Source: Heterodontus francisci
Lineage: Eukaryota
Length of the DNA stretch: 64,000 nt
Assembly: GCF_036365525.1 (NCBI RefSeq)
Contig: NC_090410.1
Span: 9,088,861 to 9,152,860 of the forward strand
Direction of reading: 5' to 3'
Both the position numbers and the translations under genes were made by a program. The notes under the pieces were generated by a model. It was not told where the DNA came from and did not search any database. It saw nothing but the letters and a program-made list of their open reading frames with translations. Of the stretch, positions 25,362 through 62,590 are shown piece by piece. Position 1 is the first letter of the stretch. Each line of letters opens with the position of its first letter.

Positions 25362-25725
25362 AGGAGACGGTGACATAGTGGTAATGTCTCTGGACTAGTA
25401 ATAGAGGCCCAGCCTAACGTCCTGGGGAGACAGGTTCAAATCCCAACACGGCTGGTGGAATTAAAATTTAATAAGTAAAAATCTGGAATTGGAAGCTAGT
25501 TGCAGTTATGATGCCATGATTGTCGTAAAAACCCATCTGGTTCAGTAATGTCCTTTAGGGATGGAAATCTGCCATACTTACATGGTCTGGCCTACATGTG
25601 ACTCCAGGCACACATCAATGTGGCTGACTCTTAACTGCCCCCTGAAATGGCCCAGCAAGCCACTTCAGGGCAATTAGGGATGGGCAACAAATATCTACCA
25701 GTGATGCCCACATCCCATGAAAAAA
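25362..25725 (+). mobile_element. tRNA-headed SINE: head and leader of the 56.4-59.7 kb LINE joined to its 3' tail
   Basis: A box TGACATAGTGG, B box GGTTCAAATCC, body matching 59390-59671 (-), then AGGGCAATTAGGGATGGGCAA...CCCACATCCCATGAA matching 56455-56515 (-). Confidence 0.85.
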
Positions 25726-25789
25726 GGAGCAAGAGCCCCAACCAACGTTCCCTTTCCTACCCCAGGAACACCAAAGGCCAATTTTAGAA

Positions 25790-26108
25790 CCGCTCTCCCC
25801 TCCGAGCTAGAAGATCGTAGGTGCAAGTCCCACTCCGGAGAACATCATCTAGGCAGTAGGGAGGGAGTGCTGCACTGTCAGAGGTGCCATCTTTCGGATG
25901 AGATGTTTAACTGAGACCCCTTCTGCCCTCTCAGGCGGTAAAAAGAAATGTCCATGGGAACTTTTACGTCCACCTGAGGGGCCAGAAGGGCCTAATTTAA
26001 CATCTCAGCTGAAAGACGGAGATAAAAGATCCCACAGACACTATTTCGAAGAAGGACAGGGGAGTTCGCCCACTGGTGTCCTGGCTAATATTTATCCCTC
26101 AACCAACA
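25790..26108 (+). mobile_element. DeuSINE 5' part, truncated at a minisatellite
   Basis: Deu core up to AATATTTATCCCTCAACCAACAT. Confidence 0.68.
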
Positions 26109-26895
26109 TAAACACAGGCCCACACTGAGTCCGATATGCAGTATAAACACAGGCCCACACTGAGTCCGATATACAGTATAAACACAGGCCCACACTGAGT
26201 CCGATATACAGTATAAACACAGGCCCACACTGAGTCCGATATGCAGTATAAACACAGGCCCACACTGAGACCGATATACAGTATAAACACAGGCCCACAC
26301 TAAGTCCGATATACAGTATAACACAGGCCCACACTGAGTCCGATATACAGTATAAACACAGGCCTACACTGAATCCGATATACAGTATAAACACAGGCCC
26401 ACACTGAGTCCGATATACAGTATAAACACAGGCCCACACTGAGTCCGATATACAGTATAAACACAGGCCCACACTGAGTCCGATATACAGTATAAACACA
26501 GACCCACACTCATTTGGGTATACAGTATAAACAGGCCCACATGCAGCCCGGTATATAGTGTGTAAACACAGGCCCACACTCAGTCCAGTTTACAGTATAA
26601 GCACAGACCCACACTCAATCCGGTATACAGTATAAACACAGACCCACACTCAGTCCGATATACAGTATAAACACAGACCCACACTCATTTGGGTATACAG
26701 TATAAACAGGCCCACATGCAGCCCGGTATATAGTGTGTAAACACAGGCCCACGCTCAGTCCAGTAGACAGTATAAACACAGGCCCATACTCAGTCCTGTA
26801 TACAGTATATAAACACAGGCCCAAACTTAAGTCTAATGTACACAGTATAAACACACGCTAGTACCCAGTCTAACAGATACAGGATAAACACAGTC
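26109..26895. repeat. 35-bp minisatellite (about 22 units), consensus TAAACACAGGCCCACACTGAGTCCGATATACAGTA
   Basis: Units start at 26111, 26146, 26181 and onward. Near-perfect on the left and diverged on the right. Confidence 0.95.
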
Positions 26896-27024
26896 CAATT
26901 TTCAGCCAGAATTTATATAACATCAGCATTGCAAAGTACAGTACAGATGTTCCAATACTGACGTTCTTTACATTTCTTGTTTCGGGAGATCAGCCTCTGT
27001 CTAATGGGTGCTAGCCTCCACCAT

Positions 27025-27465
27025 GTAAAGAAAGACTTGCATTTATATAGCGCCTTCCTTGACCTCAGGACATTCCAAAGTGCTTTACAGCCAGTGAAGT
27101 ACTTTTGCAGTGTAGTTGCTGTTGTCACATAGGAAACGTGGCAGCAATTTGCACACAGCAAGCTCCCACAAGTATCAATGTGATAATGACCAGATAATCT
27201 ATTTTAGTGATGTTGGTTAAGAGATAAATATTTGCCAGGACACCGGGGAGAACTTCACAATAGTGCTTTGGGATCTTTTACATCCAACTGAGAGGGCGGT
27301 TTAACGTCTCTTTTGAAAGACAGCACATGTGACAATGCAGCGCTCCCTCAGTACTGCACTGGAGTGTTAGCCTTGCTAAGATGCTTAAATCTCTGGAGTG
27401 GGTCTCGAACCCACAACCTTCTGACTCAGAGGTGAGAGTGCTACCCACTGAGCTACAGCTGGCAC
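27025..27465 (-). mobile_element. DeuSINE copy (full length)
   Basis: Head GCCAGCTGTAGCTCAGTGGGTAGCACTCTC...GGGTTCGAGACCC, Deu core, tail. Confidence 0.85.
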
Positions 27466-28143
27466 CCAAAATGTAGACTCTGAACATGAACAAGCAAGGC
27501 TGGCTTCCAGCCTTAGATGAGCACTTGAAACGCCATAGCATACAAGGCTACGGGCCAAGTGCTGGAAAATGGGATTAGAATAGGTAGGTGTTTGATGGCT
27601 GGCGCAGACACGATGGGCCGAAGGGCCTGTTTCTGTGATGTATGACTCTATGACTCTAATTACTCCACTGAAACAGGACCAGTAAGCAGGTTTACCGGCC
27701 ACGCTTTCTTGGTTTTCTATTGGTGACATGAATGTCGGGTCGTTTATAATCCAGGAGCTCAACCGATAGAGAGAGCCCGTCTGCTGCCAGCTGCGTTGCT
27801 ATCGTGTACAAGCATTTTACGATTCCAACTGTCGCACTGCATCCAATTACCAGCTGATCTCATATATAGGATTACAGAGACGTTATAGCACAGAAACAGG
27901 CCATTTGGCCCAACTATTCTATGCTGGTGTTTACTCTCCACACGAGCCTCCTCCCATCCTACTTCATTTCACCCTATTAGCATAACCTTTTATTTCTTTC
28001 TACCTCATGTACTCGCCTAACTTCCCCGTAAAGGTATCTGTTATTCGCCTCAACTCCTCCACATTCTCACTAATCTCTGCATAAAGAGGTTTCTCCTGAA
28101 TTCCTTCTTGGATATATTAGTGACTGTCTTATATTTATGACAC

Positions 28144-28495
28144 GGGGCGGCACAGTGGCGCAGTGGTTAGCACCGCAGCCTCACAGCTCCAGCGACCCGG
28201 GTTCAATTCCGGGAACTGCCTGTGTGGAGTTTGCAAGTTCTCCCTGTGTCTGCGTGAGTTTCCTCCGGGTGCTCCGGTTTCCTCCCACATGCCAAAAGAC
28301 TTGCAGGTTGATAGGTTAATTGGCCATGATAAGTTACCCCGAGGATAGGTAGGTGGTCGGGAAATATAGGGACAGGTGGGGATGTGGTAGGAATATGGAA
28401 TTAGTATAGGATTAGTATAAATGGGTGGTTGATGGTCGGCACAGATTCGGTGGGCCGAAGGGCCTGTTTCAGTGCTGTATCTCTAAAAAAAAAAT
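28144..28495 (+). mobile_element. HE1-type V-SINE
   Basis: Full head, V-domain and HER1 tail. Confidence 0.9.
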
Positions 28496-29009
28496 TCCTA
28501 GCTTTGCACAGGTGGAAATGCCTGCTCCATTGTGATTCCTTGTGTAATTTTTCTGTGCTTTTTCTATATATGAATCCCATTCACAATCTTGAAGCGCTCT
28601 GTTAGGCGTCCCCTCAGTGATCTCTTTTGTCGAGCCACAGACCTTCTGTGGGTTTGCGTGAAGGATCCGGTGCACAGTTGTGATGTTCACCTGTCAATCG
28701 GATCTTGCTTTACTTTGCAAAATCTGAGGAATTGCAGCTGGGGCCGCATCGCAAAGCAGTTCTGATTGGTTGCGAATTTCAGGGCCCAGCTCAATAACTG
28801 GCTTTCCTATTTTCTTTCCCTTTAAAGATCATTTTGCATCTGTAGCAAAGTGTGTGACACCTTGACGTTTACCAGGATTAGCTATCCCTCTTTAACAGAG
28901 AGAACGTTCCGGGGCATTTCACAGAGGCACGAAGGAAGATAGACACCGAGCCAAGAGGAAGAGGTTAGGAGGGATGGCCAATGGACTATTTGGAGAGAGA
29001 GGTTTTCAA

Positions 29010-29250
29010 AAGAAAAATTTGCATTTATATAGCGCCTTTCACGACCTCAGGACATCCCAAAGTGTTTCGCAACCAATGAAGTACTTTTGAAGTGTAGTCA
29101 CTGTTATAATGTAGGAAACATGGCAGCCAATCTGTGCACAGTAAGCTCCCATAAGTAGCAGTGTGATAATGACCAGTGATGTTGGTTGAGGGATATATTG
29201 GCCAGGACACCGGGGAGAACTCCCCTGCTCTTCTTTGAAATAATGCCATG
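29010..29250 (-). mobile_element. DeuSINE 3' half
   Basis: Deu core and tail. Confidence 0.75.
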
Positions 29251-29259
29251 GGACTATAT

Positions 29260-29890
29260 TATGTTCTCTTTCTCTTTTGGGCCTCCTTATCTCGAGAGAC
29301 AATGGATACGCGCCTGGAGGTGGTCAGTGGTTTGTGAAGCAGCGCCTGGAGTGGCTATAAAGGCCAATTCTAGATTAGATTAGATTAGAGATACAGCACT
29401 GAAACAGGCCCTTCGGCCCACCGAGTCTGTGCTGACCATCAACCACCCACTTATACTAATCCTACACTAATCCCATATTCCTACCAAACATCCCCACCTG
29501 TCCCTATATTTCCCTACCACCTACCTATACTAGTGACAATTTATAATGGCCAATTTACCTACCAACCTGCAAGTCTTTTGGCTTGTGGGAGGAAACCGGA
29601 GCACCCAGAGAAAACCCACGCAGACACAGAGAGAACTTGCAAACTCCACACAGGCAGTACCCAGAATCGAACCCAGGTCCCTGGAGCTGTGAGGCTGCAG
29701 TGCTAACCACTGCGCCACTGTGACAGGCTCTTCCACAGGTGCTGCAGAGAAATTTGTTTGTCGGGGCTGTTGCACAGTTGGCTCTCCCCTTGCGCCTCTG
29801 TCTTTTTTCCTGCCAACTACTAAGTCTCTTCGACTCACCACATTTTAGCCCTGTCTTTATGGCTGCCCGCCAGCTCTGGCGAATGCCACC
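29260..29890 (-). mobile_element. RTE-clade LINE 3' end, split by an HE1 SINE
   Basis: The reading WRAAIKTG...KRQRRK...FLCSTCGRACHS resumes after the SINE as RIGLYSHSRRC, the RTE C-terminal zinc-finger-like motif. Confidence 0.78.
29371..29721 (-). mobile_element. HE1-type V-SINE
   Basis: V-domain, HER1 tail, (CTAAT)n end. Confidence 0.9.
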
Positions 29891-29899
29891 GTCACAATT

Positions 29900-31425: not shown

Positions 31426-31427
31426 CT

Positions 31428-33752: not shown

Positions 33753-33992
33753 TTGGTGAGGATGGTCAGCATGTCTAGAACCCTCCTTACCTGCGGGTGT
33801 GCTCAGGGGAGGGATGTAGAAAGAGCAGAGAGAGAGAGGTTAACACTTTAGGTGAGATGCTCGCAGACATTCAACATCTCTCACTCTCTCTCTCTTGTTT
33901 TGCAGGCGAGGTCAAAACTGGACGCGTCTCCTTCGAACTGAATGAACGGGAAACGGAGACTGTGAGAGCTGGGGCCTGGCGGCCACAAAAGA

Positions 33993-35984
33993 ATGGAACA
34001 AAACACTTTCTCTCGCATAAGACTTTGGTGCCCCAGGCCTCTTGGCACCTACTCTCAGAACAAGCAGTGCTGCATCAGCGTCAAGAAGACCACGGGCGAT
34101 GCCAGGACCAAAGAGAATGAGCCCTCGTGCTCAGAGAACATGCCTCCTCCTCCCTCTACCACTGGCGGGGGCACTGCCCCGGGGGATGGGCAAGGGGAGG
34201 AAGGGCGGGTCATGCTGGATACCTGGTATGTCATCAAGCCAGGCAACACCAAGGAGAAGATCGCCTTCTTCGTCGCTCACCAGTGTGGTGGTGGCGGCAG
34301 CCGGAGCAACGCGGTGAAGGTCAAGGGCAATTGGAGTACAGATGGGACTAAGCCCAAGAGGAGGCGGAAGTCGCACGACCCTACCAAGGGCTGCCCAGCA
34401 AGGCTGAGGGAGCCGTGCCGGCTGGCGGAGAGGCTTTGCGTCTGCTCGGACCCCGTGGAACCGCCCTGTGAGACGGACCCGGTTTCAGTGGCGGAGATGG
34501 TGGCACGGGTGGAGCAGCGGGCGACGGCGGCCCCGCGGGGACAGGCCCGTCCGCCCCCGGAGCCATGCGGGGCGACGGGCGGGCAGGCGGGTGAGCCGCC
34601 GCCCCCGCCCATGGTGGTCCCCGAGGAGCAGGAGTCTGGCAGAGGGAGGGACGGGGGCGCCGATACCAGCCGGGTGGCCGAGGCCATTGCCAAGTTTGAG
34701 TCTGCGCAGCGGGGCAGTGGGGGTGAGGACGGCGGAGGGCGGCGCAATGGGCTTGCAAAGGGCGAGGGGGCCGGCGCCGGGGGGGGTGGAGATCGTGCCC
34801 CCTGTTCCGCCGGTGAAGTGCGCATTGCCTTCCGGGTGGCCAGCGGGGACACCCGCTCACCGGCGGAGGCGCAGTCCAGCACGGGGCCCAGCTGCATCTT
34901 CATGAGCTGCAACCACACCGTCTGCAGTGGGGCCATGGAGAAGATCACCTGCGACCTCTACCATATCGTCAGCCCCTCTTCCTCCTCCTCCTCCTCCTCC
35001 TCCTCTGTGTCTGCTGCTGACTTCCCGCCCGGAGGCGGTGGCGGCAGCAGCAACAACCACGGCAGTTTGGCCCGCTCCCGGTCGGATGTGGAGATGACGA
35101 CGCCCCACCCAGTCGAAGAGCAGCGGAACGACAGCCTCCCCGACGGCGCCGCCGCTACCACCCCTTCCTCGGAGAAGAGCGTGCCGCGGGACTGCCTGAA
35201 CGGCTTCCACGTGGAGGTAGTGGTGACGGGTGGCGTGGACCAGTGCGTCTTCTTCGGGCGGGAGGGAGCCCAGGGCGACAAGGAGGACACGGTCTGCGTG
35301 ACGGTCAGCGGCCCCAGCCAAGACGCCAAGTGCCTGGCCTGCGAGGACCCTCCGCCAGGCCAGCTCTTCTTCCTCCACTCTCTGGCCCAGAGCCCCGAGG
35401 CGGACCCCTCGGCGGACGAGTCGTCCGACAGGAAGCCCAGCCCGACCAGGCAGGGCCTGCCAGAGGCCAAGGAGAAGGCGGTCCTCTTGAGCCCCGAAAC
35501 CGACCCGCAGGACGCCTCGCTCTACTGCCTCTACCGCCACGTCTCGCATGACTTCCTGGAGATCCGGTTCAAGATCCAGCGCCTACTGGAACCCCGGCAG
35601 TACCTGCTTCTCCTCCCTGACCATGTGACAGTGAAGATCCTGAGCTACCTCCCAACCCGGGCCCTGGCCGCCCTCAAGTGCGTCTGCCACCACTTCAAGG
35701 CCGTCATTGAAGCCTACGGGGTCCGTGCCACTGACTCTCGGTGGAACCGAGACCCACTTTACCGCGATGACCCCTGCAAACAATGCAAGAAGCGCTATGA
35801 GAGGGGCGACGTCTCGCTCTGCCGCTGGCATCCCAAACCTTATCACCACGACCTGCCTTATGGACGCTCCTACTGGATGTGTTGCCGACGGAAAGACAGG
35901 GACACACCGGGCTGCCGAATCGGACTCCATGACAATAACTGGGTGCAGCCCAGTGACACATTAAAGAGGGAGGAGGGGAGGTAA
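33993..35984 (+). CDS. fbxo46: F-box only protein 46 (663 aa, single coding exon)
   Basis: N-terminal LWCPRPLGTYSQN; FBXO34/46 motifs LDTWYVIKPGNTKEKIAFFVAHQ, SVAEMVARVEQRA and HVSHDFLEIRFKIQRLLEP; F-box LPDHVTVKILSYLP; C-terminal YRDDPCKQC..CRWHPKPY..YWMCC. Acceptor (CT)n TTGTTTTGCAG| at 33905/33906. Confidence 0.95.
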   Translation: MEQNTFSRIRLWCPRPLGTYSQNKQCCISVKKTTGDARTKENEPSCSENMPPPPSTTGGGTAPGDGQGEEGRVMLDTWYVIKPGNTKEKIAFFVAHQCGGGGSRSNAVKVKGNWSTDGTKPKRRRKSHDPTKGCPARLREPCRLAERLCVCSDPVEPPCETDPVSVAEMVARVEQRATAAPRGQARPPPEPCGATGGQAGEPPPPPMVVPEEQESGRGRDGGADTSRVAEAIAKFESAQRGSGGEDGGGRRNGLAKGEGAGAGGGGDRAPCSAGEVRIAFRVASGDTRSPAEAQSSTGPSCIFMSCNHTVCSGAMEKITCDLYHIVSPSSSSSSSSSSVSAADFPPGGGGGSSNNHGSLARSRSDVEMTTPHPVEEQRNDSLPDGAAATTPSSEKSVPRDCLNGFHVEVVVTGGVDQCVFFGREGAQGDKEDTVCVTVSGPSQDAKCLACEDPPPGQLFFLHSLAQSPEADPSADESSDRKPSPTRQGLPEAKEKAVLLSPETDPQDASLYCLYRHVSHDFLEIRFKIQRLLEPRQYLLLLPDHVTVKILSYLPTRALAALKCVCHHFKAVIEAYGVRATDSRWNRDPLYRDDPCKQCKKRYERGDVSLCRWHPKPYHHDLPYGRSYWMCCRRKDRDTPGCRIGLHDNNWVQPSDTLKREEGR

Positions 35985-39950: not shown

Positions 39951-40007
39951 CCAAAGTGAGCAAAAGTTAACTGCGCTGTGACTTTAACCTTACTAGTCAA
40001 TCATTTG

Positions 40008-40401
40008 TTTCATTTTTTCATGGGGCATGGGCATCACTGGCAAAGCCAGCATTTGTTGCCCATCCCTAATTGTCCTTGAATTGAGAGGCTTGCTCGGCCA
40101 TTTCAGAGGGTAGTTAAGAGTCAACCACATTGCTGTGGGTCTGGAGTCATATGTAGGCCAGACCGGGTAAGAACAGCAGATTTCCTTCCCTAAAGTGAAC
40201 CAGATGGGTCCTTACAACAACGATAGCTTCATGTCGCCATTACTGAGACGAGCTTCCAATTTCAGATTTTTAAAAAATTCATTAACTGAATTTAAATTCC
40301 ACCAGCTGCCATGGTGGGATTTGATCCTGTTTCTCCAGGGCATTAGCCTGGGCCTCTGGATTACTAATCCAGTGACATTACCACTACACCACCGTCTCCC
40401 C
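40008..40401 (-). mobile_element. tRNA-headed SINE (derivative of the 56.4-59.7 kb LINE family)
   Basis: The - strand reads GGGGAGACGGTGGTGTAGTGGTAATGTCACTGGATTAGTAATCCAG...GATCAAATCCCACC, then leader, then the LINE 3' tail CAAGGACAATTAGGGATGGGCAA. Confidence 0.85.
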
Positions 40402-41962: not shown

Positions 41963-42272
41963 CACAGTGGTGCAGTGGTTAGCACTGCAGCCTCACAGCT
42001 CCAGGGACCCGGGTTCGATTCTGGGTACTGCCTGTGCGGAGTTTGCAAGTTCTCCCTGTGTCTGTGTGGGTTTTCGCCGGGTGCGCCGGTTTCCTCCCAC
42101 ATCCAAAAGACTTGCAGGTGATAGGTAAATTGGCCATTGTAAATTGCCCCGAGTATAGGTAGGTGATAGGGAATATGGGATTACTGTAGGGTTAGTATAA
42201 ATGGGTGGTTGTTGGTCGGCACAGACTTGGTGGGCCGAAGGGCCTGTTTCAGTGCTGTATCTCTAAAAAAAA
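41963..42272 (+). mobile_element. HE1-type V-SINE
   Basis: Head, V-domain, HER1 tail. Confidence 0.88.
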
Positions 42273-42446
42273 AAGCAGCCTTATTTCTCCAAAGTCTTTT
42301 CCTCCTCTTCAGCAAATGTTGTCCAAAAGTGTTTCAGCTCTTACCCTAGCTCCCCCGCTCCAGCAGCAACTCCAGAAACTGACTGCAGCACCTCGTTGAT
42401 GCACTCAGCACTCCCAATCAGGCAGCAGCAAACCCTGTTTTTTTTT

Positions 42447-45800: not shown

Positions 45801-46000
45801 CAGTCCTGCACGGGCCTGGGCCTGGGCCGGTCCATCCAGGACAACATCCACCTGGTCTGGGACCTGATCCATCTTTCCCAGAGGTTTCGCCTGTTGGTCG
45901 CCTTTCTCTCCCTCAATCAAGGGAAGGCGTTCAACAGGATGGATCACAAATATCTTTTCAGGACTCTGCGTGTGGTCGGACTCGGGCCACATTTTATATA
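42855..46000 (+). mobile_element. Tx1-type retrotransposon: low-complexity ORF1 C-terminus plus degenerate ORF2 (APE + partial RT)
   Basis: IASLNINGSR near 44208, FLQET, SRIDRLYIS, CSDHH, AYWHFNNRLLED, KSPGLD, MIHPDQS and LNQGKAFNRMDH; many frameshifts. Confidence 0.88.
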
Positions 46001-46834
46001 TGTGGCCCCTGGTTTTGGTCTCCCCACAAATGGAAACATCTCTATGTCTACCTTATTGAGCTCCCTCATAATCTTAAAGACCTATATCAGGCCACCCCTC
46101 TCTTCTCAAGAAAATAGTTCCAATCCTTTCAATCTTTTCCTTCCTTGCACATCACAGAGTATTAGCATTAACAAAGACTACAGTTGTGTGAGTGGGTAGT
46201 AGCTGCCCAAAGATCCTGGGAATGCTCTGCTGAGAGGGTGAATGCATTGCCTGGTGTGCTGCTGGCCAGAGAGTCACAGGTCTTCCCCTCCCTTCCCCAA
46301 CCCCCCACTCCGGTTGATGCTATGGTACCTCAACTGTGCTGGGGTTGCTTTAATTAGCCCCTGGGCTGGGAGGAGAGGGGGAATCAGACAGAATTCCAGC
46401 TCATGATTTACACAGAACATACGGAACACAACAGGCCATTCAGCTCTACTTGTCCATACTAGTCCACACAAGCTTCCATCCTCCTTCATCTCACCCTATC
46501 AGCATATCCTTCGATTCCTTTCTCCCTCACATGCTTATCTAGTTTCCCTTTAAATGCATCTATGCTGTTTGTCTCAACTATGCCACATGCTAGTGAGTTC
46601 CACATTCTTACCACTCTTGAGAAAACTGCCCACCAAGTAAGTATAGGTTTGTAGACACAGGCATTGGATTTGACTGCGATGCCTCCCATGGTCGACACCA
46701 CCTTGGCTCACACATGTATAATGAAGAGAGAATTAGCAGAGGGCAGGCAAGCACCTCTTGGAAACCTACCCTGCAAGAGGCAACATCATCAAGGGAGCAG
46801 GGAACATGGAATTGATACTGATTCCCATTGTAAG

Positions 46835-47052
46835 GTATCCATCCTGACTTGGAACTATATCACCATTCCTTCACTGTCGCTGGGTCAAAATCCTGGAACT
46901 CCCTCCCTAACACTGTGGGTGTACCTACACCGCAAGGACTGCAGTGGTTCAAGAAGGCAGCTCACCACCACCTTCTCAAGAACAATTAGGGATGTGCAAT
47001 AAATGCTGACCTTGCCAGTGACGCCCACATCCTGAGAATGAATTTTTTTAAA
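46835..47052 (+). mobile_element. 3' fragment of the tRNA-headed LINE family
   Basis: CATCCTGACTTGGAACTATATC...CAATTAGGGATG...GCCCACATCCTGAGAATGAAT. Confidence 0.8.
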
Positions 47053-47600: not shown

Positions 47601-47617
47601 TATTCCAGAATCGTTGA

Positions 47618-47850
47618 CTCATGAAACTACTGGATTGTTATAAAAACCCATCTGGTTCACTAATGTCCTTCAGGGAAGGAAATCTGCCATCCTTACCTGG
47701 TCTGGCCTACATGTGTCTCCAGATCCACGGCAATGTAGTTGACCCTTAACTGCCCTCTGAAATGGCCTAGCAAGCCACTCAGTTGTATCAGACTGCCACA
47801 GAATAGCACTGTGAGTGTACCTACCTACACCACATGGACTGCAGCAGTCT
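47618..47850 (+). mobile_element. Headless fragment of a tRNA-headed SINE (leader joined to a longer LINE 3' piece)
   Basis: AAAAACCCATCTGGTTCACTAATGTCC...GAAATGGCCTAGCAAGCCACTCAGTTGTATC, then AGCACTGTGAGTGTACCTAC..CACATGGACTGCAG. Confidence 0.78.
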
Positions 47851-48334
47851 TGCCTGTGATGCTCTCTTCCCCAAGAACAAATTAAAAAAAGATGGTCAAA
47901 CCTATGTTCCCATGGTGCTACTTGGACGAGCAGAAGAGTCAACATTTACCTCTCAGCCAGCATGACCAAAACAAATTAATGGGTTATTGTATTGCTCCTT
48001 GTGGGATCTTGCTGTGCACACATTGGCTCAAATAGCAGTGACTACACTCCCAAAGTTAGCATTATCTATGAGGCCCTTTGGAATGTTTAATTGTGTTATC
48101 TCTCTTTTATCACTCACAGTTTCGAGCCTGAATTACATTTACGAGATTTGGCTGGTGAAATAGATGGATATTCAACCTGGCCAGTCCCTTTAAGGCCACT
48201 GGCCACACGCTTCCTGCTGACAAATCCAGAGAATTATGGCTGCTTGTGAAATTCAATTAGAATTTAAGTGTATTCACTTGTAAATGTTTGGCTCCACCTC
48301 ATGACAATTTCACAATCCTTGGCAATGGAAAAAA

Positions 48335-48785
48335 GAAAGATTTGCACTAATTTACATAATTCCTTTCATGCGCCTGGGGCATCTCAACGCGTTTTGCAAC
48401 CAATTAAGTAGTTTTGAAATGTTGTCAACTGTTGTAATGTAGGAAATGTGCAGGCAATTTGCACACAGCTAGCTCCCACAAACAGCAATGTGATAATGAC
48501 CAGATCATCTGTGTTGTCATATAAATATTGGCTTGGACACCAGGGAGAATTCCCTTGCTCTTCTTCGAAATGGTGTCACAGGATCCTTTGTATCCACCTG
48601 AAAGGGCAGACATGTCTAGGTTTAGCATTACATCCAAAAGACAGCACCTCCAACAGTGCAGCATTCCCTCAGTACTGCACTGGAGCATCAGCCTTAAATC
48701 TTTGAGATGAAGCCCTTGAGTGGGACTTGAACTCAATTTTTTGACTTGGAGAGAAGAACCCACTGAACCACATCTGACACCTGTT
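48335..48785 (-). mobile_element. DeuSINE copy
   Basis: Head, Deu core, tail. Confidence 0.75.
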
Positions 48786-51254: not shown

Positions 51255-54200
51255 ACAAGGATCGGTACTTGGGGCCCCAACTGTTCACTAGACATGTCAA
51301 TGATTTGGATGTGGGGACCAAATGTAATATTTCCAAGTTTGCGGATGACACAAAACTAGGTGGGAATGTGTGTTGTGAGGAAGATGCAAAGTGGCTTCAA
51401 GGGGATTTGGACAGTCTTAGTGAGTGGGCAAGAACATGGCAGGTGGAATATAATGTGGAAAAATGTGAGCTTATGCACTTTGGCAGCAGGAACTGATGTG
51501 CAGGGTATTTCTTAGATGGTAAGAGATTAGAAAGTGTAGCTGTACAAAGTGACTTGGGTGTCCTCGTCAATAAGTCACTGAAAGCTAACACACAGATGCA
51601 GCAAGCAATTAGGAAGGCTAATGGTATGTTAGCCTTTATTACAAGAGGATTTGAGTGCAGGAGTAGTGAAGTCTTGCTTCAATTGTATAGAACCTTGGTT
51701 AGAACACACCTGGAGTACTGTGTGCAGTTTTGGTCCCCTTATCTTAGGAAGGATATTATTGCCATAGAGGGAGTGCAATGAAGATTCACCAGACTTGTAC
51801 CTGGGAAGGTGGGACTGTCCTCTGAAGAGAAATTGGGGAAAATGGGCCTGTATTGTCTAGAGTTTTGAAGAATGAGAGGTGATCTTATTGAATCCTACAA
51901 AATACTGAAGGGATAGATGTGGTAGATACAGGTTAGATGATACCCCCTGGTTGGGAAGTCTAGAAGCAGGGGACACAATTTCAAATTAAGGAGGAAGCCA
52001 CTTAGGACTGAGAAGAGGAGAAGTTTCTTTAGAATCATAGAACGTTTAAGGCCACCTTCCAACATCTGGTCCGTAACCCTGCAGCTTACGGCACGTGAGG
52101 TGCATATCCAGACTCCTTTTGAATGAGTTGAGGGTCTCTGCCTCAATACCCTTTCAGGCAGAGAGTTCCAGACCCCCACCACTCTCTGGGTGAAGAAGGT
52201 TTTCTTCATCTCCCCTCTAATTTTTCTCCCAATCACTTTAAATCTATGCCCCCTTGTCACTGACCTCTCTGCTAAGCTGGATAGACCCTTCACCTCCACT
52301 CTATCCGGGCCCCTCAAAATTTTGTACATTTCAATGAGATCTCCCCTCAGCCTTCTCTGTTCCAAGGAGAACAACCCCAGCCTATCCAATCTTTCCTCAT
52401 TGCTGCATTTTTCCAGTCCTGGCATCATCTGCGTCAATCTCCTCTGTACCCTCTCTAGTGCAATTACAACATTTCTGAAATGAGGTGACCAGAACTGCAC
52501 ACAGTACTCAAGTTGTGGCCTAACCAATGAGTTATACAGTTCCAGCAGAACCTACCTGCTCTTGTATTCTGTACCACGGCTAATAAGGGAATGGGTTCCA
52601 TATGCCTTCTTAACCACCTTATCGATCTGTCCTGCTACCTTCAGGGATCTATGGACATTCAAGGTCCCTTACTTCCTCTATACTTCTCCGTATTTTCCCC
52701 ATTAATCATGTATTCCTTTGCCTTGTTTGACCTCCCCGAATGCATCACCTCACACTTCTCCAGGTTGAATTCCATTTGCCACTTTTCTGTCCATCTGACC
52801 AGACCATCAATATCTTCCTGTAGCCTGCAGCTATCCTCCTCGCTATCTACCACACGGCCAATCTTTGTGTCATCTGCAAACTTCTTGATCATACCTGCTA
52901 CATTAAGGTCCAAATTGTTAATATACACCACAAAAAGCAGGGGACCCAGTACTGAGCCCTACGGAATGCCACTGGAAACAGCCGTCCAGTCGCTAAAACA
53001 ACCGTCAACAATTACCCTTTGTTTCCTGCCACTGAGCCCATTTTGTATCCACTGCTGCATTTCCCTGGATTCCATGGGATTTTATTTTTTTTAACCAGTC
53101 TGCCATGTGAGACCTTGTCAAAAGCCTTGCTAAAATCCATGTAGACCACATCACCTGCACTACCTTCATCTTTCTTCCTTGTTACTTCTTCAAAAAATTC
53201 AATCAAAATTGTCAAACAAGATCTTCCCTTAACAAATCCATGCTGACTATCCTTAATTGATCTGTGCTTTTCTAAGTGATAGTTTATCCTGTCTCTCAGA
53301 ATAGGTTCCAATAATTTGCCCCCTACTGAGGTTAGCCTGTAACTATTCGGTCTATCCTCACTCCATTTTTAAACAGAGGTACAACATTAGCAATTCTCCA
53401 ATCCTCCGACACCACACCTGTCTCCAGTGAGGACTGGAAAATGATGGTCAGACCCTCTGCTATTTCCTCCCTTGCTTCTTTTGACAGCCTAGGATACATT
53501 TCACCTGGCCCTGGTGATTTATCAACTCTCAAGGATGCTAATCCCATTAATATTTCCTCTCTCCCTATGTTTATCACATCCAATGCTTCACACTCTTCCT
53601 CCTTAACTACAATATCTGCATCATCCCCCTCTTTTGTGAAGACAGACGCAAAGTATTCATTAAGAACCATACCAACATCTTCTGCTCCTACACATAGGTT
53701 ACCTTTTTGGTCTTTTATGGGTCCTACTCTTTCCTTAGTTATCCTCTTACTCTTAATGTATTGATAAAACATCTTTGGGTTCACCTTGATTTTTCTTGCC
53801 AATATTCTTTCATGCCCTCTCTTTGCGTCCTAATTTCCTTTTTGATTTTATCCCTCCACTTTCTATAATCCTCTCGGCTTTCTGTAGTATTGAATTCTTG
53901 GTGTCGGACATAAGCTTTCCTTTTCTGCCTTATCTTACCCTGTAAGCTCCTTGACATTCATGGGGCTTTAGATTTGGCCGTCTCACCCTTTTTCTTTGTG
54001 GGAACATGTTTACAGTGAACCCCTTGAATCTCTCCTTTGAATGTCTCCCACTGCTCTGATACTGATTTACCTTCAAGTAGCTGTTTCCAGTCCACTTTCG
54101 CTAAATCGCTCCTCAGTTTACTAAAATTGGCCTTGCCCCAATTGAGAACTCTAACTCCTGTTTAAACTCTGTGGTTTTCCATAATTATGTTTAAACTGAC

Positions 54201-55175
54201 TGAATTTAGTTATAGACTATGGATTATGATCACTACCACCAAAATGCTCTCCCACTGCCACTTCTTCCACCTGCCCATCTTCATTTCCTAAAACTACGTC
54301 TAAAACTGTGCCCTCTCTTGTGGGACTTGCTACGTACTGGGCAAACAAGTTCTTCTGAATGCACCTCAAGAATTCTGCTCCCTCAATTCCTTTCAAACTA
54401 TCCCAGTTAATATTGGGGTAATTAAAATCCCCTACTATTACTGCCTTACTGTTCTTGCACTTCTCAGAGATTTGCCAACATATCTGCTCTTCTATCTCCC
54501 TCTGACTAGTTGAGAGTCTATGGTGCACTCCCAGCAGTGTGATTGCCCCTTTTTTGATCCTTAGCTCAATCCATATGGCCTCATTTGATGAGCCTTCCAA
54601 CATATCATCTCTCCTCACAGCTGTAATAATTTCTTTGACCAAAACTGCCACTCCTCCTCCTTTCTTTTCTCCCTCCCTATCGCATCTGAAAACCCAGTAA
54701 CCAGGAATGTTGAGCTGCCATTCCTGTCCCTCCTTAAGCCATGTTTCTGTAATAGCTATGATATCATACTGCCACGTGTCTATCTGCGCCTGCAGCTCAT
54801 CTGCTTTATTTGCTATACTCCTTGCATTGAAATAGATACCATTGAGCACTGCCAAAGTCTCTCTAACCCTCATTTTCTAACCCTCATTTCCTCTGTCTTC
54901 CAGACTCATCCATTAATTTTCCGCCTTCCATTTTAATTTCTGATTTACTCAGAGGGTTGTGAATCTTTGGAATTCTCTACTCCAGAGGGCTGTGGAAGCT
55001 CAGTCATTGAGTATGTTTAAAGTAGAGATTGACAGATTTCTAAATGCCAATAATATAAAGGGATCTGGGGATAGTGTGGGAAGTAGGCATTGAAGTGGAT
55101 GATCAGCCATGATTGTATTGAATGGCGGAGCAGGCTCGATGGGCTGAATGGCCTTCTCCTCCTATGTTCCTATGT
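51255..55175 (+). mobile_element. CR1 LINE 3' half (51255-52030 and 54945-55175), split by a nested antisense CR1
   Basis: SKFADDTKLGG and LYRTLVRTHLEYCVQFWSP. Sequence breaks at AGTTTCTTT and resumes at ACTCAGAGGGTTGTGAATC. Confidence 0.85.
52031..54900 (-). mobile_element. HER1-like CR1 LINE, nearly complete degenerate ORF2
   Basis: APE IYFNARSI..IAITETWL..VGDFN..SDH; RT KSPGPG, SQHGFVKGRSC, MDFSKAFDKV, KFADDTK; C-terminus VRPQLEYCVQFWSP..WNSLP; stops and frameshifts. Confidence 0.93.
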
Positions 55176-56444: not shown

Positions 56445-59400
56445 TTTTATTCATTCATGGGATGTGGGTGTCGCTGGCTATGCCAGCATTTATTGCCCAT
56501 CCCTAATTGCCCTTGAGAAGGTGGTGGTGAGCTGCCTTCTTGAACCGCTGCAGTCCGTGTGGGGTAGGTATTGTGCTGGTAGCAAGGGGGTCCCAGGATT
56601 TTGACCCAGTGACAGTGAAGGAACGGCGATATAGTTCCAAGTCAGGATGGTGTGTGACTTGGACGGGAACTTGCAGGTGGTGGTGTTCCCATGTATTTGC
56701 TGCCCTTGTCCTTTTAGTTGGTAGAGGTCGCGGGTTTGGAAGGTGCTGTTGAAGGAGCCTTGGTGCATTGCTGCAGTGCATCTTGTAGATGGTACACACT
56801 GCTACCACTGTGTGCCGGTGGTGGAGGGAGTGAATGTTTGTAGATGGGGTGCCAATCAAGCAGGCGGCTTTGTCCTGATTGGTGTCGAGCTTCTTGAGTG
56901 TTGGAGCTGCAACATCCAGGCAATTGGAGAGTATTCCATCACACTCCTGACTTGTGCCTTGTAGATGGTGGACAGGCTTTGGGGAGTCAGGAGGTGAGTT
57001 AGTCACCTCAGGATTCCTAGCCTCTGACCTGCTCTTGTAGCCACAGTATTTATATGGCTACTCCAGTTCAGTTTCTGGTCGATCGTAGCCCCTAGGATGT
57101 TGATAGTGGGGGATTCAGCGATGATAATGCTGTTGAATGTCAAGGGGAGATGGTTAGATTCTCTCTTGTTGGAGATGGTTTCTGCCTGGCACTTGTGTGG
57201 TGCGAATGTTACTTGCCACTTGTCAGCCCAAGCCCGGATATTGTCCAAGTCTTGCTGCATTTCTACACGGACTGCTTCAGTATCTGAGGAGTCACGAATG
57301 GTGCTGAACATTGTGCAATCATCAGCGAACATCCCCACCTCTGACCTAATGATTGAAGGAAGGTCATTGATGAAGCAGCTGAAGATGGTTGGGCCTAGGA
57401 CACTACCCTGAGGAACTCCTGCAGTGATGTCCTGGAGCTCAGATGATTGACCTCCAACAACCACAACCATCTTCCTTTGCGCCAGGTATGACTCCAGCCA
57501 GCGGAGGGTTTTCCCCCTGATTCCCATTGACCTCAGTTTTGCTAGGGCACCTTGATGCCAGACTCCGTCAAATGCTGCCTTGACGTCAAGGGCAGTCATT
57601 CTCACCTCACCTCTGGAGTTCAGCTCTTTTGTCCATGTTTGAATGAAGGCTGTAATGAGGTCAGGAGCTGAGTGGCCCTGGCGGAACCCAAACTGCGCGT
57701 CACTGAGGAGGTTATTGCTAAGCAAGTGCCGCTTGATGGTACTGTTGATGACACCTTCCATCCCTTTACTGATGATAGAGAGTAGGCTAATGGGGCGGTA
57801 ATTGGCTGGGTTGGACTTGTCCTGCTTTTTGTGTACAGGACATACCTGGGCAATTTTCCACATTGCAGGGTAGATGCCAGTGTTGTAGCTGTACTGGAAC
57901 AGCTTGGCTAGGGGCGCGGCAAGTTCTGGAGCAGAGGTCTTCATTACTATTGCCGGGATATTGTCAGGGGCCCACTGCCTTTGCAGTATCCAGTGCCTTC
58001 AGTCGTTTCTTGATATCACGCGGAGTGAATCGAATTGGCTGAAGTCTGGCATCTGTAATGCTGGGGACTTCAGGAGGAGGCCGAGATGGATCAACAACTC
58101 GGCACTTCTGGCTGAAGATTGTTGCAAATGCTTCTGCCTTATCTTTCGCACTGATGTGCTGGGCTCCCCCATCATTGAGGATGGGGATATTTGTGGAGCC
58201 ACCTCCTTCAGTTAGTTGTTTAATTGTCCACCACCATTCACGGCTGGATGTGGCAGGATTGCAGAGCTTAGATCTGATCCGTTGGTTATGGGATCGCTTA
58301 GCTCTGTCTATCGCATGCTGCTTATGCAGTTTGGCACGCAGATAGTCCTGTGTTGTAGCTTCACCAGGTTGACACCTCATTTTGAGGTATGCCTGGTGCT
58401 GTTCCTGGCATGCCCTCCTGCACTCTTCATTGAACTAGGGTTGGTCTCCTGGCTTGATGGTAGAGTGGGGGATATGCCGGGCCATGAGGTTACAGATTGT
58501 GGTTGAGTACAATTCTGCTGCTGCTGATGGCCCACAGCTCCTCATGGATGCCCAGTTTTGCATTGCTAGAACTGTTTGAAATCTATCCCATTTAGCACTG
58601 TGGTAGTGCCACACAACACGATGGACGGTATCCTCAATGTGAAGGCGGGACTTCATCTCCACAAGGACTGTGCGGTGGTCACTCCTACCAATACTGTCAT
58701 CGACAGATGCCTCTGCGGCAGGCAGATTGGTGAGGACGAGGTCAAGTATGTTTTCCCCTCTTGTTGGTTCCCTCACCACCTGCCGCATACCCAGTCTAGC
58801 AGATATGTCCTTTAGGGCTCGATCAGTAGTGGTGTTACCGAGCCACACTTGGTGATGGACATTGAAGTCCCCCACCCAAAGTACATTCTGTGCCCTCGCG
58901 ACCCTCCGTGCTTCCTCCAAGTGCTGTTCAACATGGAGGAGTACTGAGTCATCAGCTGAGGGAGGGCGGTAGGTGGTAATCAGCGGGAGGTTTCCTTATC
59001 CATGTTTGATCTGATGCCATGAGACTTCATGGGGTCCCGAGTCAATGTTGAGGACTCCCAGGGCAACTCCCTTCCTGCTGTATACCACTGTGCCACCACC
59101 TCTGGTGGGTCTGTCCTGCTGGTGGGACAGGACATACCTGGTGATGGCAGTGTCTGGGACATTGTCAGTCAGGTATGATTCTGTGAGTATGACTATGTCG
59201 GGCTGTTGCTTGACTAGTCTGTGGGACAGCTCTCCCAACTTTGGTACAAGCCCCCTGATGTTAGTAAGGAGGACTTTGCAGGGTTGACGGGGCTGGGTTT
59301 GCCATTGTAGTTTCCGGTGCCTAGGTCGATGCCGGGTGACCCGTCCGGTTTCATTCCTTTTTATTGACTTTGTAGCGGTTAGGTACAACTGAGTGGCTTG

Positions 59401-59671
59401 CTCGGCCATTTCAGAGGGCATGTAAGAGTTAACCACATTGCTGTGGGTCTGGAGTCACATGTAGGCCAGACCAGGTAAGGACAGGAGATTTCCTTCCCTA
59501 AAGGACATTAGTGAATTTTTACAACCATCAACAATGATTTCATGGCCATCTAGTTTTTTAATTCCAGATTTATTAATTGAATTCAAATTTCATCTTCTGC
59601 TGTGGTGGGATTTGAACCCATGTCCCTGGGTCTCTGATCCAGTGACAATACCACTATGCCACCGCCTCCCC
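56445..59671 (-). mobile_element. Full-length 3.2-kb single-ORF CR1/L2-group LINE with a tRNA-derived 5' head (this copy is frameshifted)
   Basis: A box TGGCATAGTGG (59651-59661) and B box GGTTCAAATCC (59608-59618). ORF pieces 58996-59436, 58435-58920, 57964-58380, 57003-57944 and 56503-57006 assemble into APE (LLTNIRGL, LTESYL, GGG, VGDFN, SDH) plus RT (NYRPISLL, QFGFR, GVPQGSVLGP, FADD). Tail (GAAT)2 AAAA. Confidence 0.92.
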
Positions 59672-59994
59672 TCAGAATGGATTTGATAGGTAGTTGAAGA
59701 AAACGGGAATAATCGGAGTGAAACGGGCACGTGGGATTAGGATACTGCTGATGTGGAGGATTAGCACCAACTTGGAATGACTGGGCTCCATCTCAGTTGT
59801 GAATTATCTTTAGCTAACTCGGGACAGACTGGGAATCAAAACTAGGATCTTCTCATCTGTGTGGATTGGTCACAGGTGTGTAATCAGGAGAATTATCTGA
59901 ATTTTTTCAATTATTTCTGTGTTAGGTTAAAGTTGTGTCCATCTTGACTGGTGGTTTCAGTGAAATTCACTCTCCTCTTCCGCCCTCTGTAAAC

Positions 59995-60460
59995 CCATAG
60001 TTCATCTAAAACTCGGCTGCCCCCGGATCCTAACTCGGACCAAGTCCTGTTAACCCGTCACTTCTATTCTTGACGACCGACGTTGGCTTCCAGTTCAGCA
60101 ACGCCTCAAATTTAAAATTCTCCTTATCTCTCTAATCTTCTCCAGCCCTACAAACGTCCGAGATCTCTGTGCTCCTCCATCTCTGATCTTTTGTGCATCT
60201 CCAGTATCTTTTGTTCCACTGTTGGTGGCCGTGCCTTCAGCTGTCTAGGCCCCAAGCCCTAGAATTTCCTCCCTAAACCTCTCTGTCTCTCTATCTGTCT
60301 CTTCTCCTTTTAAGACACTGCTTAAAAAAACAAACTATCTCTTTGCCTGTCCTAATATCTCCTCCTGTGGCCCAATGTCAAATTTTGTCTGATAACTCTC
60401 CTGGAAAGTGGCTTGGGACATTTGGCTATGTTAAAGGCACTTTATAAATATAAGTTATTC
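59995..60460 (+). mobile_element. L2-type LINE 3' end
   Basis: Conserved L2 3' region and AAAGGCACTTTATAAATATAAG tail. Confidence 0.72.
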
Positions 60461-60534
60461 TTTCAGTTCCTCATGGTTAGATTGAATGAAAATTACACTC
60501 CTGTTGTATTCTTAAACATTTGCTTTTAAAACAG

Positions 60535-60681
60535 TTTGAACACAAACCAAAGAGCGTCATGTCAAGTCAAGTGAGGCACCTCGCCTCGCTCATCGACTTC
60601 CAACGTCTGTGGAATGTTTTCTTGATGCCAATGCTAATCGAGCGATACCCAGGGTCAGGGGGAATCGAATTTGTCCGTCAG
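60535..60681 (+). CDS. qpctl: qpctl coding exon 2 (49 codons; not called in the ORF track)
   Basis: Acceptor TTTGCTTTTAAAACAG| and donor CAG|GTACGT, 147 nt, phase 0/0. Translates FEHKPKSVMSSQVRHLASLIDFQRLWNVFLMPMLIERYPGSGGIEFVRQ, resembling QPCT LLIERYPGS and QPCTL DPQRLW..L.PLL. Confidence 0.92.
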
Positions 60682-62171
60682 GTACGTTCGTAGCTGAAAT
60701 ATTTCTTTTGTTGTTGTGGTTTCAGAATCAACTCCCACGATTTTTCAAAGGTACTCCTGATAGCAACCAAGCTCGGGTCTCAAGCAAATGTGGAACTGAA
60801 AGGGGTTGTTACAATTCAGGATGTTTCCCAATACTCCATTCACATAAAGCCACTGCTTTCTAGTGTGACATCTTCAGTCTGTATTGTATACATTTTCATG
60901 CGTTCGGGCTCTAATAAATGCCAGTTATTGTGTCATTCAGGCTAAACAATAAATTGAATTTACTGTAAGAAATAAAATTATACAGACACAAAACAATATA
61001 ATTCCAAAGATAAACATAACAGATACAGATCTTGGCAATGCTGCTGTTTCTGTCTTCTAAGGGAAACCCACTGCTCAGCTTATTAGCCCAATCAGTCCGT
61101 TGAGAGGGACATTTGTTCAGTGGATTCCATGAACACAGAAAGACCCTGTGAAAATTATCAATGCATTTCAACTTTTTACTGTTGGCGACATTGATAATTT
61201 TCATGTGCTCTCTCCAAGTTTGGGAGACTTCACTTGACAAATTGTAACCTGTGAAAGGCATCCTGCACTTCCCACTGGTAATAAAGGCCTGTGCTTGAAG
61301 GGGGTAAATACAAAACTAATCTATGGAAACATGGAATCATAGAGTGGTACTGCACAGAAGGAGGCTATTCGGCCCATCATGCCTGTGTTAGAGCTAGTAA
61401 ATTAATCCCACTCCATCTACTCTTTCTCTGTAGCCCTGCAATTTCTTCCCCTTCAAGTATTTATCCAATTCCTTTTGAAAGTTGCTATTGAATCTGCTTC
61501 CACTGCCCTTTCAGGCAGTGCGTTCCAGATCCCAACTCACTCTGTAACACATTTATGGAACAGGCTCCCTAAGTGGAGTGAGATATTATTGATTTAATTA
61601 AAATTAGATTTCTTTCACAAGTTAATATTTTGCAATACAGTATAAGAGTAACTGGAGACATGACGTGTTGGGAGAAACTTTGGACTTACGGTTCGCAAAA
61701 CTCTCCACCACAAGGATTTTCCTCGCCTTGTGTCTGGGTCTGTTGTAAACTAGTTGATGGAGATTGCTGTATTATCACAGGGCTGAAGGCAGTGAATGAG
61801 CCTGGATCTTTTTTTTTGATCTGGAAATCCCTATTTTTCGATGAACTTCAACACTGAGCCGGGGGGGGGCAAGTTTGAGGGAGTGGAAAAGTTGCATAAT
61901 CAGTGATTCATTAAAATAATGCGCTGAGATCCTGGCCAGGCAGCCTCTCAATTCAGATTTACTGCATTGGAGTCACTCAAGGAGGCTGTGGTGAGTGATA
62001 GGTTTCAATAGAACATATAAAATTCTTAGAGGGTTTGTCAAGGTAGAGGCTGACTGGAGAGTCTAGACGTACGATAACCTACACGGCTACAGAAAGTAGG
62101 ATTATGCTGGATAGCCCTTTTGTGGCTGGCATAGACACAAGGGGCCAAATGGCCTCCTGTTTTATTAATTT

Positions 62172-62590
62172 TGGGGCATTTATTGCCCATCCCTAATTGA
62201 CCTTGGAAAAAGTGGTGGTGAGCTGCCTTCTTTGACCGCTACAGTCCGTGTGATGTAGCTATACCCATGAGTGCTTCTCGTTCTTTGGCAGTTTGATGCA
62301 ACTGAGTGGCTTGCTAGGCCATTTCAGAGGGCAGTTAAGAGTCGACCACATTGCTGTGGGTCTGGAGTCACATGTAGGTCAAACTGGATAAGGACTGCAG
62401 ATATCCTTCCCTGAAGGACGTTAGTGAATCCGATAGGTAGTTTCATGATCATTATTAATGAGATTAGCATTTTATTGCAAATTTATTAATTGAATTTAGA
62501 TTCCCTCAGCTGCCAGAGTGGGATTTGAACTCCTGTTTCTGGAGCATAAGGCTGGGCCTCTGGATTACTAGTCCAGTAACATCACCACTA
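62172..62590 (-). mobile_element. tRNA-headed SINE (derivative with a longer LINE 3' piece)
   Basis: The - strand has TAGTGGTGATGTTACTGGACTAGTAATCCAG..GTTCAAATCCC, then leader, then CACACGGACTGTAGCGG..CTCACCACCAC..CAATTAGGGATGGGCAATAAATG. Confidence 0.82.

Follow-up and report, generated by a model that had tools for sequence, protein, structure and literature searches.

SINEs are commonly thought to arise when a head derived from a small RNA is added to the tail of a LINE. Zenon-derived deletion elements are already known, but without a Pol III head. Persaeus, which derives from the lepidopteran Zenon (Wang et al. 2019, PMC6740152), joins the 5′ UTR and ORF start of its parent to the ORF end and 3′ UTR, has several independent origins, and was proposed in that study to form by microhomology and template jumping. 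Persaeus is a SIDE and not a SINE, since it shows neither tRNA homology nor a Pol III promoter, whereas the shark derivatives described here inherit the tRNA head of their parent. The bipartite RTE/Vingi elements Bov-tA, CoeSINE4 and SINE2_Gav (Kojima 2018, PMC5786205) do combine a tRNA head with LINE 5′ and 3′ parts, but their head was added by template switching after the deletion, whereas the autonomous shark LINE is already headed. In the sections of the same paper that were available, RTE-1_DAn and the elements related to it are likewise LINEs with tRNA-like sequence, although they belong to another clade.

The long element studied here is the published elasmobranch Zenon LINE (CR1 group), for which Zenon-1 consensuses exist from CarCar, RhiTyp, ScyCan, SquAca and HypSab (Stuart et al. 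2026, PMC13343379) and which appears as "CR1-Zenon like" in bioRxiv 10.1101/443036. Our comparison, made by eye over the first 400 bases of seven elasmobranch rows in the accessible part of the PMC13343379 supplement, demonstrated the same leader motifs, the same ATGGCCTAGCAAGCC and a length of ~3.3 kb; the lack of an ORF1 and the poly-A tail are also shared (PMC13343379). A 15-base leader motif occurs five times in that supplement, and the head together with ATG-GCC-TAG is present in the published consensuses of five elasmobranch species, one of them a ray. The main text of PMC13343379 makes no mention of tRNA, polymerase III or internal deletion, and the accessible parts of the paper as a whole hold no description of the head, the T-run avoidance, the amber codon or the short derivatives. 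What is new here is the pairing of LINE and SINE subfamilies, together with evidence of repeated origin.

A tRNA-headed LINE

The window (the whole 64,000-nucleotide stretch of Heterodontus francisci DNA analyzed) contains a full-length but decayed tRNA-headed Zenon LINE of the young subfamily LY at 56445..59671 on the minus strand, with no run of four T (T4) on its sense strand and 5.0% off the consensus (21 copies aligned). Its tRNA-like head (59608..59661, minus strand) carries an A box at 59651-59661 and a B box at 59608-59618; in another LINE copy the Rfam tRNA match reaches 22.8 bits (E 0.019), which is under the gathering score of 29. The shared leader ends in an in-frame ATG-GCC-GAG (59398..59409, minus strand), where most copies have TAG as the third codon. 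A basic N-terminal extension and an APE endonuclease region, interrupted by stops, occupy 58435..59454 (minus strand; PF14529 and PF03372, both also matched by LINE copy L236), and the reverse transcriptase region lies at 57003..57998 (minus strand; PF00078, E 1.7e-36). The 3′ tail that is retained in short forms (56445..56575, minus strand) consists of the last ORF codons, with the stop at ~56503-56505, followed by AATAAA, (GAAT)n and an A tail. Three 5′-truncated copies of the same LINE are located at 1..1943 (minus strand, running off the window edge), 6998..7629 (plus strand) and 46839..47043 (plus strand, a tail copy).

The 3.3-kb consensus has a 298-base leader and one 975-codon endonuclease-RT frame, with no ORF1, and ends in a poly-A tail preceded by 1-7 T. 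Full-length copies share a start point, a G 10 bases upstream of the A box, and no target-site duplications are evident around them by eye; truncated copies in a random sample have scattered start points and unrelated flanks. No headless or differently headed form was seen in this genome. In an RT tree that includes no named Zenon reference, the LINE stands apart from avian and shark CR1, among single-frame relatives. The family makes up 6.4% of a 1.0-Mb sample, and our findings therefore bear on shark genome size and repeat annotation.

Short elements in the window

The initial annotation had described four segments in which the leader of the LINE jumps directly to its 3′ end. All four are present at the positions it gave, and each consists of the leader of the LINE at 56445-59671 (minus strand) followed by the 3′ tail of that LINE (self-BLAST E 1e-41 to 1e-84, and alignments). 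Two are type A elements, with head, leader and a short tail: 25362..25725 (plus strand, junction ~25664-25667, from alignments and tree) and 40008..40401 (minus strand, junction ~40079, from the tree). In both, the leader ..CCACTCAGTT is fused to CAAGGGCAATTAG, and both are placed among the type A rows of our leader tree. The other two are type B4 elements, with a longer tail. One, at about 47610..47850 (plus strand, junction ~47805), lacks the head, as had been noticed, but it also ends at ~47850 without the terminal tail; the other (62172..62590, minus strand, junction ~62275) has a shortened 3′ end. The differing breakpoints proposed for the series hold in so far as there are two junction types, but not four, with the copies belonging to two multi-copy families, A and B4. 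The B junction is indeed distinct from that of type A, but sits ~15-20 bases upstream of the point first given, at AGCAC(TGTGGG), which we located at window positions 47805 and 62275; the join had been masked by a small deletion at that point in the window's own LINE copy. The tails of types A and B are partly coding, with the ORF stop codon inside CAATTAG. The four short copies are not offspring of the window's LINE copy, which is a member of the young subfamily.

With regard to class, the short forms are 360-450 bases long, non-coding and dispersed (40 of 40 scored matches per query), with a LINE-derived tail and a tRNA-like head containing A and B boxes. The separate origin of a SINE2 is not what we find: their head and body correspond to the leader of the LINE itself and follow its evolution. 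Like SIDEs, they have the two ends of one LINE and several origins; the absence of tRNA homology seen in SIDEs does not apply to them. A Meta-domain SINE seems improbable, as comparison by eye with the Meta consensus and the Deu blocks (PMC7245038 Fig. S4) showed no likeness, and a motif search of three supplements found no matching SINE row. SacSINE1/Deu and CmiSINE are a different family, their published bodies being of Deu or CORE type and their tail of L2 type.

Subfamily pairing and a probable repeated origin of type B

The initial annotation had proposed a single autonomous parent for both ends of the short forms, and the pairing of short forms with LINE subfamilies at both ends supports this. 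Across 316 columns of the leader, the consensus of B1 differs from that of LY at 7 positions and that of B4 from that of the old LINE subfamily LO at 15, against 33 between B1 and B4 and 34 between B4 and LY. Divergence from their own consensus, in subfamily samples biased to low divergence because they were drawn as best BLAST matches, pairs the young B1 (3.0%) with the young LY (4.4%) and the old B4 (13.5%) with the old LO (13.9%). The short forms are not the far older elements with a single junction that would be expected of an ordinary SINE, as headed long copies have diverged as far as the oldest short forms; for example, a headed long copy (L041) stands at 74% identity versus 73-77% for short forms. 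At the other end, a diagnostic tail column carries C in 16 of 16 LY and 14 of 15 B1 copies, and A in 28 of 35 B4 and 3 of 4 LO copies, tails being available from only 4 LO and 4 LM copies. From the start of the ORF, B forms also retain 15-40 bases, and these carry the variant of the partner subfamily. In a tree of 88 leaders, which has no outgroup and 8 of 85 branches starred, LY, B1 and B23 form a clade (support 100/99), as do all 12 B4 and 6 LO rows (97/93). Trees that unite all B forms in one clade fail the AU test (p 2.5e-43), as do trees with LINEs and short forms each monophyletic (p 9.3e-15). These sequence comparisons indicate that type B likely originated at least twice.

The copies fall into several junction classes. 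The aligned copies (410 kb) also contain 26 one-off internal deletions, and at 12 of these the ends overlap by 1-8 bases. B1, B23 and B4 nevertheless all use one 3′ acceptor, AGCAC. This shared acceptor could mean that there was one old B deletion, whose ends were later exchanged for those of each new LINE subfamily through template switching or gene conversion. An acceptor common to B1, B23 and B4 could reflect recombination with an older B, and B23 and B1 could be nested trims of a single young deletion, given their AATA and TA overlaps. B1 agrees with LY at both ends and breaks at a 5′ site of its own, so such a history needs two replacements, whereas fresh deletion is common, with one-off deletions at many other places, and we regard a refreshed single deletion as decidedly improbable. 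The B acceptor is preceded by a pyrimidine stretch and AG. Splicing was rejected as the source of type B, since the join preserves the AG and no matching GT stands at the donors.

We favor as probable the reading in which these SINEs are a Zenon head and leader joined to the element's own tail by repeated internal deletion, in successive LINE subfamilies, of a parent likely transcribed by Pol III. A reverse transcriptase template jump, or a DNA deletion, would lead from the A-rich ORF start to the tail, often with 1-6 bases of microhomology. The head-and-tail products would then be mobilized in trans, and a few (A, B4 and B1) would amplify. Because the parent is likely transcribed by Pol III, each deletion product would likely be a working SINE at once. 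The dated series of long and short forms thus points to a third way for SINEs to originate, through a single deletion that recurs over time; the origin of SINEs from a coding retrotransposon read by Pol III would be new.

Type A and the direction of origin

Type A is the commonest short form (10 in 1.0 Mb), with one junction and a 2-base variant of it, and with its own diagnostics at both ends. It is now an independent SINE lineage, and the direction of its origin is less certain than for type B. Because its junction is essentially uniform and it forms a lineage apart, the reverse history has to be weighed, i.e., that a tRNA SINE with a Zenon tail, the ancestor of type A, donated its head to the LINE, and that only type B arose by deletion. 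The head must have been acquired at some point, and under this history once, as it is missing from hagfish and coelacanth Zenon 5′ ends and from all 80 metagenome relatives (0/80 with the head; the leader profile gave no match at E up to 10). ARAGORN made one weak tRNA call on these 80 loci. For the 40008 element, none of the best 30 matches to the head continues into the ORF, i.e., type A has no paired LINE among them, and the type A junction is also present in four other organisms. In the leader tree, the A1 rows emerge from a polytomy basal to LM+LY, a pattern that transfer of a head from SINE to LINE would also produce. Against this, type A, at 9.0-10.6%, has diverged less than LO and B4 and takes a position between LO and LM in the tree, the headed LINE is common to sharks and a ray, and the 1.0-Mb sample contained no leader on a recognizable tail of another family (8 of the 30 rows resisted classification). 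By eye, the body shows no match to Meta or Deu alignments either. We consider this SINE-to-LINE transfer improbable, and prefer deletion from the headed LINE for type A as well.

The leader was found in no viral contigs and no prokaryote genomes. A run labelled as a coral metagenome contains the leader and the type A join in a small share, which we do not take to indicate an invertebrate host.

T-run avoidance and RNA polymerase III

The 3.3-kb consensus contains no sense-strand T4 run, against 4.5 expected (base shuffle, P 0.009), and 16 A4 runs. Zero T4 alone is not significant when codon usage is kept (P 0.075-0.088), but the ORF contains 4 TTT against 15.2 expected under the same constraint (0 of 3000 shuffles as low) and no TTTT or TVTTT against 5.0 expected (P 0.007). 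Among xTN codons, those standing before T end in T in 0 of 24 cases, versus 44 of 205 elsewhere. The avoidance concerns T alone and only the sense strand, and it depends on run length (observed/expected 0.72 for TT, 0.29 for TTT and 0 for TTTT); it is also present in consensuses of older copies. For comparison, a conventional CR1 from this genome carries 16 T4 runs, and T4 runs occur in 66 of 66 long headless metagenome relatives, each with a TTT ratio of at least 0.70. Because the avoidance is absent from CR1 and these headless relatives, it suggests Pol III transcription of the long LINE, which from its sequence we consider likely; Pol III would make the 3.3-kb RNA from the internal A/B-box promoter. 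The strict B box is present in 13 of 13 B1 copies and decayed in older ones; in LO, strict A and B boxes occur in 2 and 1 of 14 copies.

Alternatively, the long element could be a Pol II LINE with a passenger tRNA head, its T avoidance otherwise caused and its short forms Persaeus-like SIDEs bearing A/B boxes. In PMC5786205, Pol II is taken to transcribe LINEs and the bipartite elements derived from them, and the present element terminates in AATAAA plus an A tail; AATAAA is, however, tolerated internally, at element positions 119 and 343. The head of 20 young-subfamily copies contains TATTT, a moderate terminator in a B2 assay (PMC8466645), and an uncapped 3.3-kb RNA with upstream ATGs would be hard to translate. 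Against a Pol II transcript stand the restriction of the avoidance to T, to one strand and to run length, its persistence in older consensuses, the common G start of full-length copies shortly upstream of the A box, and the T that precede the A tail; we judge this alternative rather unlikely. At their 3′ ends the T+ SINEs B2, Dip and Ves (PMC8466645) likewise have AATAAA, a variable T run and an A tail, but they are short and non-coding, and the likeness is weak evidence because T runs lengthen after insertion (PMC8466645).

In the full Pol III reading, Pol III would transcribe an autonomous protein-coding retrotransposon over its whole length, and the RNA would be translated capless through a conserved amber codon. 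The element would have been retained since sharks and rays separated and would serve as a SINE factory, in which every deletion of the middle gives a complete tRNA SINE, making SINE and LINE the same element at two lengths. This reading seems to us only just on the probable side. Should Pol III indeed transcribe the long form, two questions become directly testable, namely whether Pol III can make a translated 3.3-kb mRNA in a vertebrate, and how an uncapped RNA without a usable start codon is translated.

Leader and translation

The retained leader had been described as including the first codons of the ORF. Its ATG does share the reading frame of the endonuclease, but the third codon, after ATG-GCC, is TAG in 68 of 100 LINE copies and GAG in 13 of 100, including the window copy. 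The LINE RNA has 8 upstream ATGs, of which an out-of-frame one is not conserved in the old subfamily. Translation likely does not depend on cap-dependent scanning, and would begin at the ATG of the leader and either read through the amber codon or reinitiate after it; this is the weakest part of the proposed mechanism. A search of Rfam gave no match to an IRES (Dicistrovirus-type included) or a pseudoknot at the leader end. The leader fold of one copy is better than those of shuffled sequences (z -2.4), and any functional role for it, or for the hairpin at the amber codon, is speculation. Folds of the alignments vary by class, with only this small hairpin around the amber codon recurring, in 4 of 5 classes.

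Structure and identity of the long element

The long element at 56445-59671(-) carries endonuclease and RT domains and a tRNA-like head with an A box at 59651-59661(-) and a B box at 59608-59618(-). The majority consensus built from 21 aligned copies, most of which diverge from it by 3-6%, is 3.3 kb long with a single 975-codon frame, which follows ATG GCC TAG and reaches into the tail, where it stops at CAATTAG. Among 79 copies picked because their alignment reaches the first bases, G occupies the first three positions in 68, 73 and 78, and no position upstream exceeds 40 of 79. Its RT relatives show at most 46% identity, and most of them are single frames some 950 residues long; in a quick tree the element separates from avian and shark CR1. 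By sequence, it is the already known elasmobranch Zenon of PMC13343379: by eye, within the first 400 characters of that paper's consensus rows, this head and leader stand at the start of seven rows from five species including one ray, and are missing from the start of two hagfish rows and one coelacanth row.

TAG stands at codon 3 in 31 of 43 copies of the young subfamily (LY), 16 of 19 of the middle one (LM) and 21 of 38 of the old one (LO), and the 120-base stretch up to the endonuclease is in frame in 39 of 42 LY and 20 of 32 LO copies but in only 7 of 17 LM copies. The first in-frame Met past the TAG in the consensus is residue 285, beyond the endonuclease; amber read-through and other starts are about equally probable. 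Many LM copies (loci L349-L370) also miss about 12 bases immediately upstream of the ATG, and indels disrupt the frame of their N-terminal stretch; LM may be a non-autonomous full-length subfamily. Two predicted proteins from another eukaryote set (P0123 and P0124) start with translated leader (MAEQA..., MMSFREGNL...), showing that gene callers read into the headed LINE.

Short forms and their junctions

The four short segments listed in the initial annotation are present at 25362-25725(+) and 40008-40401(-), which we class as type A (short tail), and at 47618-47850(+) and 62172-62590(-), which we class as type B4 (longer tail), and, as had been proposed, they carry the long element's leader (about 300 bases) and its 3′ tail. 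In the source genome (6.0 Gb), we analyzed an unbiased 1.0-Mb sample (100 stretches, each of 10 kb and placed at a round-number position), the best-match loci for each junction, an exact-pattern sample and 40 longer regions that surround headed copies. Type A passes from CAGTT or CAGTTGT to CAAGGGCAATTAG, a join also found in contigs of four other organisms (sequencing runs X5, X10, X11 and X16). Type B forms retain 15-40 bases from the start of the ORF before they join at AGCAC, a single 3′ acceptor common to them, after CCGCT in B1, GTCAAT or GGAAT in B23, and CAGAAT or CAGAAAA in B4. Short forms at six further loci, L446, L468, L165(-), L178, L055 and L076, have their join near TGCAGCGGTTCAAG, which may be a third acceptor belonging to an older variant of the tail.

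The headed LINE family occupies 63,962 of the 1,000,000 randomly sampled bases. A leader profile identified 30 rows there, of which 10 are type A, 4 run into the ORF, 1 is joined to a later ORF point, 7 are joined to the element's own tail elsewhere, and 8 are partial or unclassed. No strict type B was present in this sample, and type B is therefore rarer than type A. Of 30 loci with the exact leader-end pattern, 24 go on as LINE, 5 have distinct one-off joins and 1 ends in unrelated sequence.

Direction of the history

The initial annotation suggested that these SINEs may be internal deletions of the tRNA-headed LINE, with acquisition of a SINE head by the LINE as the alternative. Leader consensuses of B1/B23 and LY differ at 7 positions and those of B4 and LO at 15, versus 33 between B1 and B4; ages pair in the same way, and tail diagnostics match, with only four LO tails in the comparison. 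In a tree of 88 leaders, randomly drawn among copies with a nearly whole leader (at most 12 per class), LY, B1 and B23 form a clade (support 100/99) and all B4 group with six LO rows (97/93). AU tests on classes set by junction rejected both a single B clade and separate clades for LINE and short forms. Together, these results indicate that type B had at least two origins, or was refreshed at both ends, and they largely uphold the deletion claim, which we consider very likely for type B.

Type A differs from type B. Private changes mark these forms at both ends, in the head and in the tail; of the 30 best matches to the head of the 40008 segment, none continues into the ORF. In the tree they lie, with no strong support, between LO and LM. 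Their lower divergence favours a parent LINE of intermediate age, and we regard deletion as rather likely; head exchange between SINE and LINE, in either direction, is the less likely reading.

Raw material for short forms is plentiful. In 410 kb of aligned copies there are 26 one-off deletions of more than 150 bases, 12 of which have ends that overlap by 1-8 bases; the random sample contains 9 in 64 kb of headed LINE (4 of them from one locus) versus 2 in 130 kb of conventional CR1. By eye, the recurrent joins overlap by 1-3 bases; the join at locus L472 overlaps by about 6. One whole locus, L190, holds several rearranged and internally deleted headed-LINE pieces within 10 kb.

Avoidance of T runs

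Oligo-T ends transcription by Pol III, whose RNA carries no m7G cap. On the sense strand, the LINE consensus contains zero runs of four T (T4), versus 16 A4, 13 C4 and 8 G4, and older-copy consensuses likewise have none. Base shuffling predicts 4.5 (P 0.009); with codon usage kept the expectation is 2.1-2.3, and the deficit is not significant (P 0.075-0.088). Within the ORF, TTT occurs 4 times versus 15.2 expected, with none of 3000 synonymous shuffles that low, and AAA, CCC and GGG are at expected levels; codons able to end in TT do so before T in 0 of 24 cases, versus 44 of 205 otherwise. The shortest Pol III terminators given in the part of PMC8466645 consulted, TTTT and TVTTT, are together absent from the ORF versus 5.0 expected (P 0.007). 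As controls, a conventional CR1 of the same genome, of which a T-run-rich copy lies at 51650-54900(-), has 16 T4 runs, and of 80 metagenome relatives all 66 with frames of at least 500 codons contain T4, with TTT ratios of 0.70-1.24.

Among 107 parsed 3′ ends (of 171), the A tail is preceded by 3-7 T in 29, but the same part of PMC8466645 notes that such runs can grow after insertion, which weakens them as support for Pol III. Against Pol III stand a TATTT that 20 young copies carry in the head, 8 upstream ATGs, and no IRES family match in Rfam. On balance, these sequence patterns suggest that the full-length element is probably transcribed by Pol III.

Most likely, an ancestral Zenon gained the tRNA-derived head before the shark-ray split, and the headed element would then have come under selection against T runs, as expected of a Pol III template. 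Since promoter and RT recognition site sit at opposite ends, loss of the middle would leave a complete SINE; most deletion products would remain single and a few would amplify alongside their parent subfamily. Deletion derivatives of lepidopteran Zenon are known, but as described in the consulted part of PMC6740152 they lack a Pol III head, unlike the shark short forms with their tRNA-like head. Our literature search, which was incomplete and lay outside Repbase and Dfam, found no description of a Pol III LINE or of these SINEs.

Other features of the window

A single-exon frame at 8031-8534(-) encodes a nanos zinc finger (PF05741, E 1e-25), and a 672-codon frame at 33966-35984(+) has a C-terminal F-box; we take the latter to be FBXO46/FBXO34-like, presumably close to the nanos gene as in mammals. 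A young tRNA-headed SINE family, which we assume to be HE1/V-SINE-like, is present at 12871-13221, 15242-15603, 16733-17037, 17496-17833, 28145-28494, 29371-29722, 41963-42274 and 63285-63647; its consensus contains no T4, and the one ARAGORN call (63292-63364) lies within the last copy. An older abundant family, presumably SacSINE1/Deu-like, occurs at 3617-3958, 9118-9544, 21199-21618, 27027-27466, 48331-48781 and other sites. Fragments of another RT element (PF00078), which we take to be Tx1/L1-like, lie at 14210-16450(+) and 45172-46200(+), and a tandem array (period about 35 bases) spans 26108-26896.
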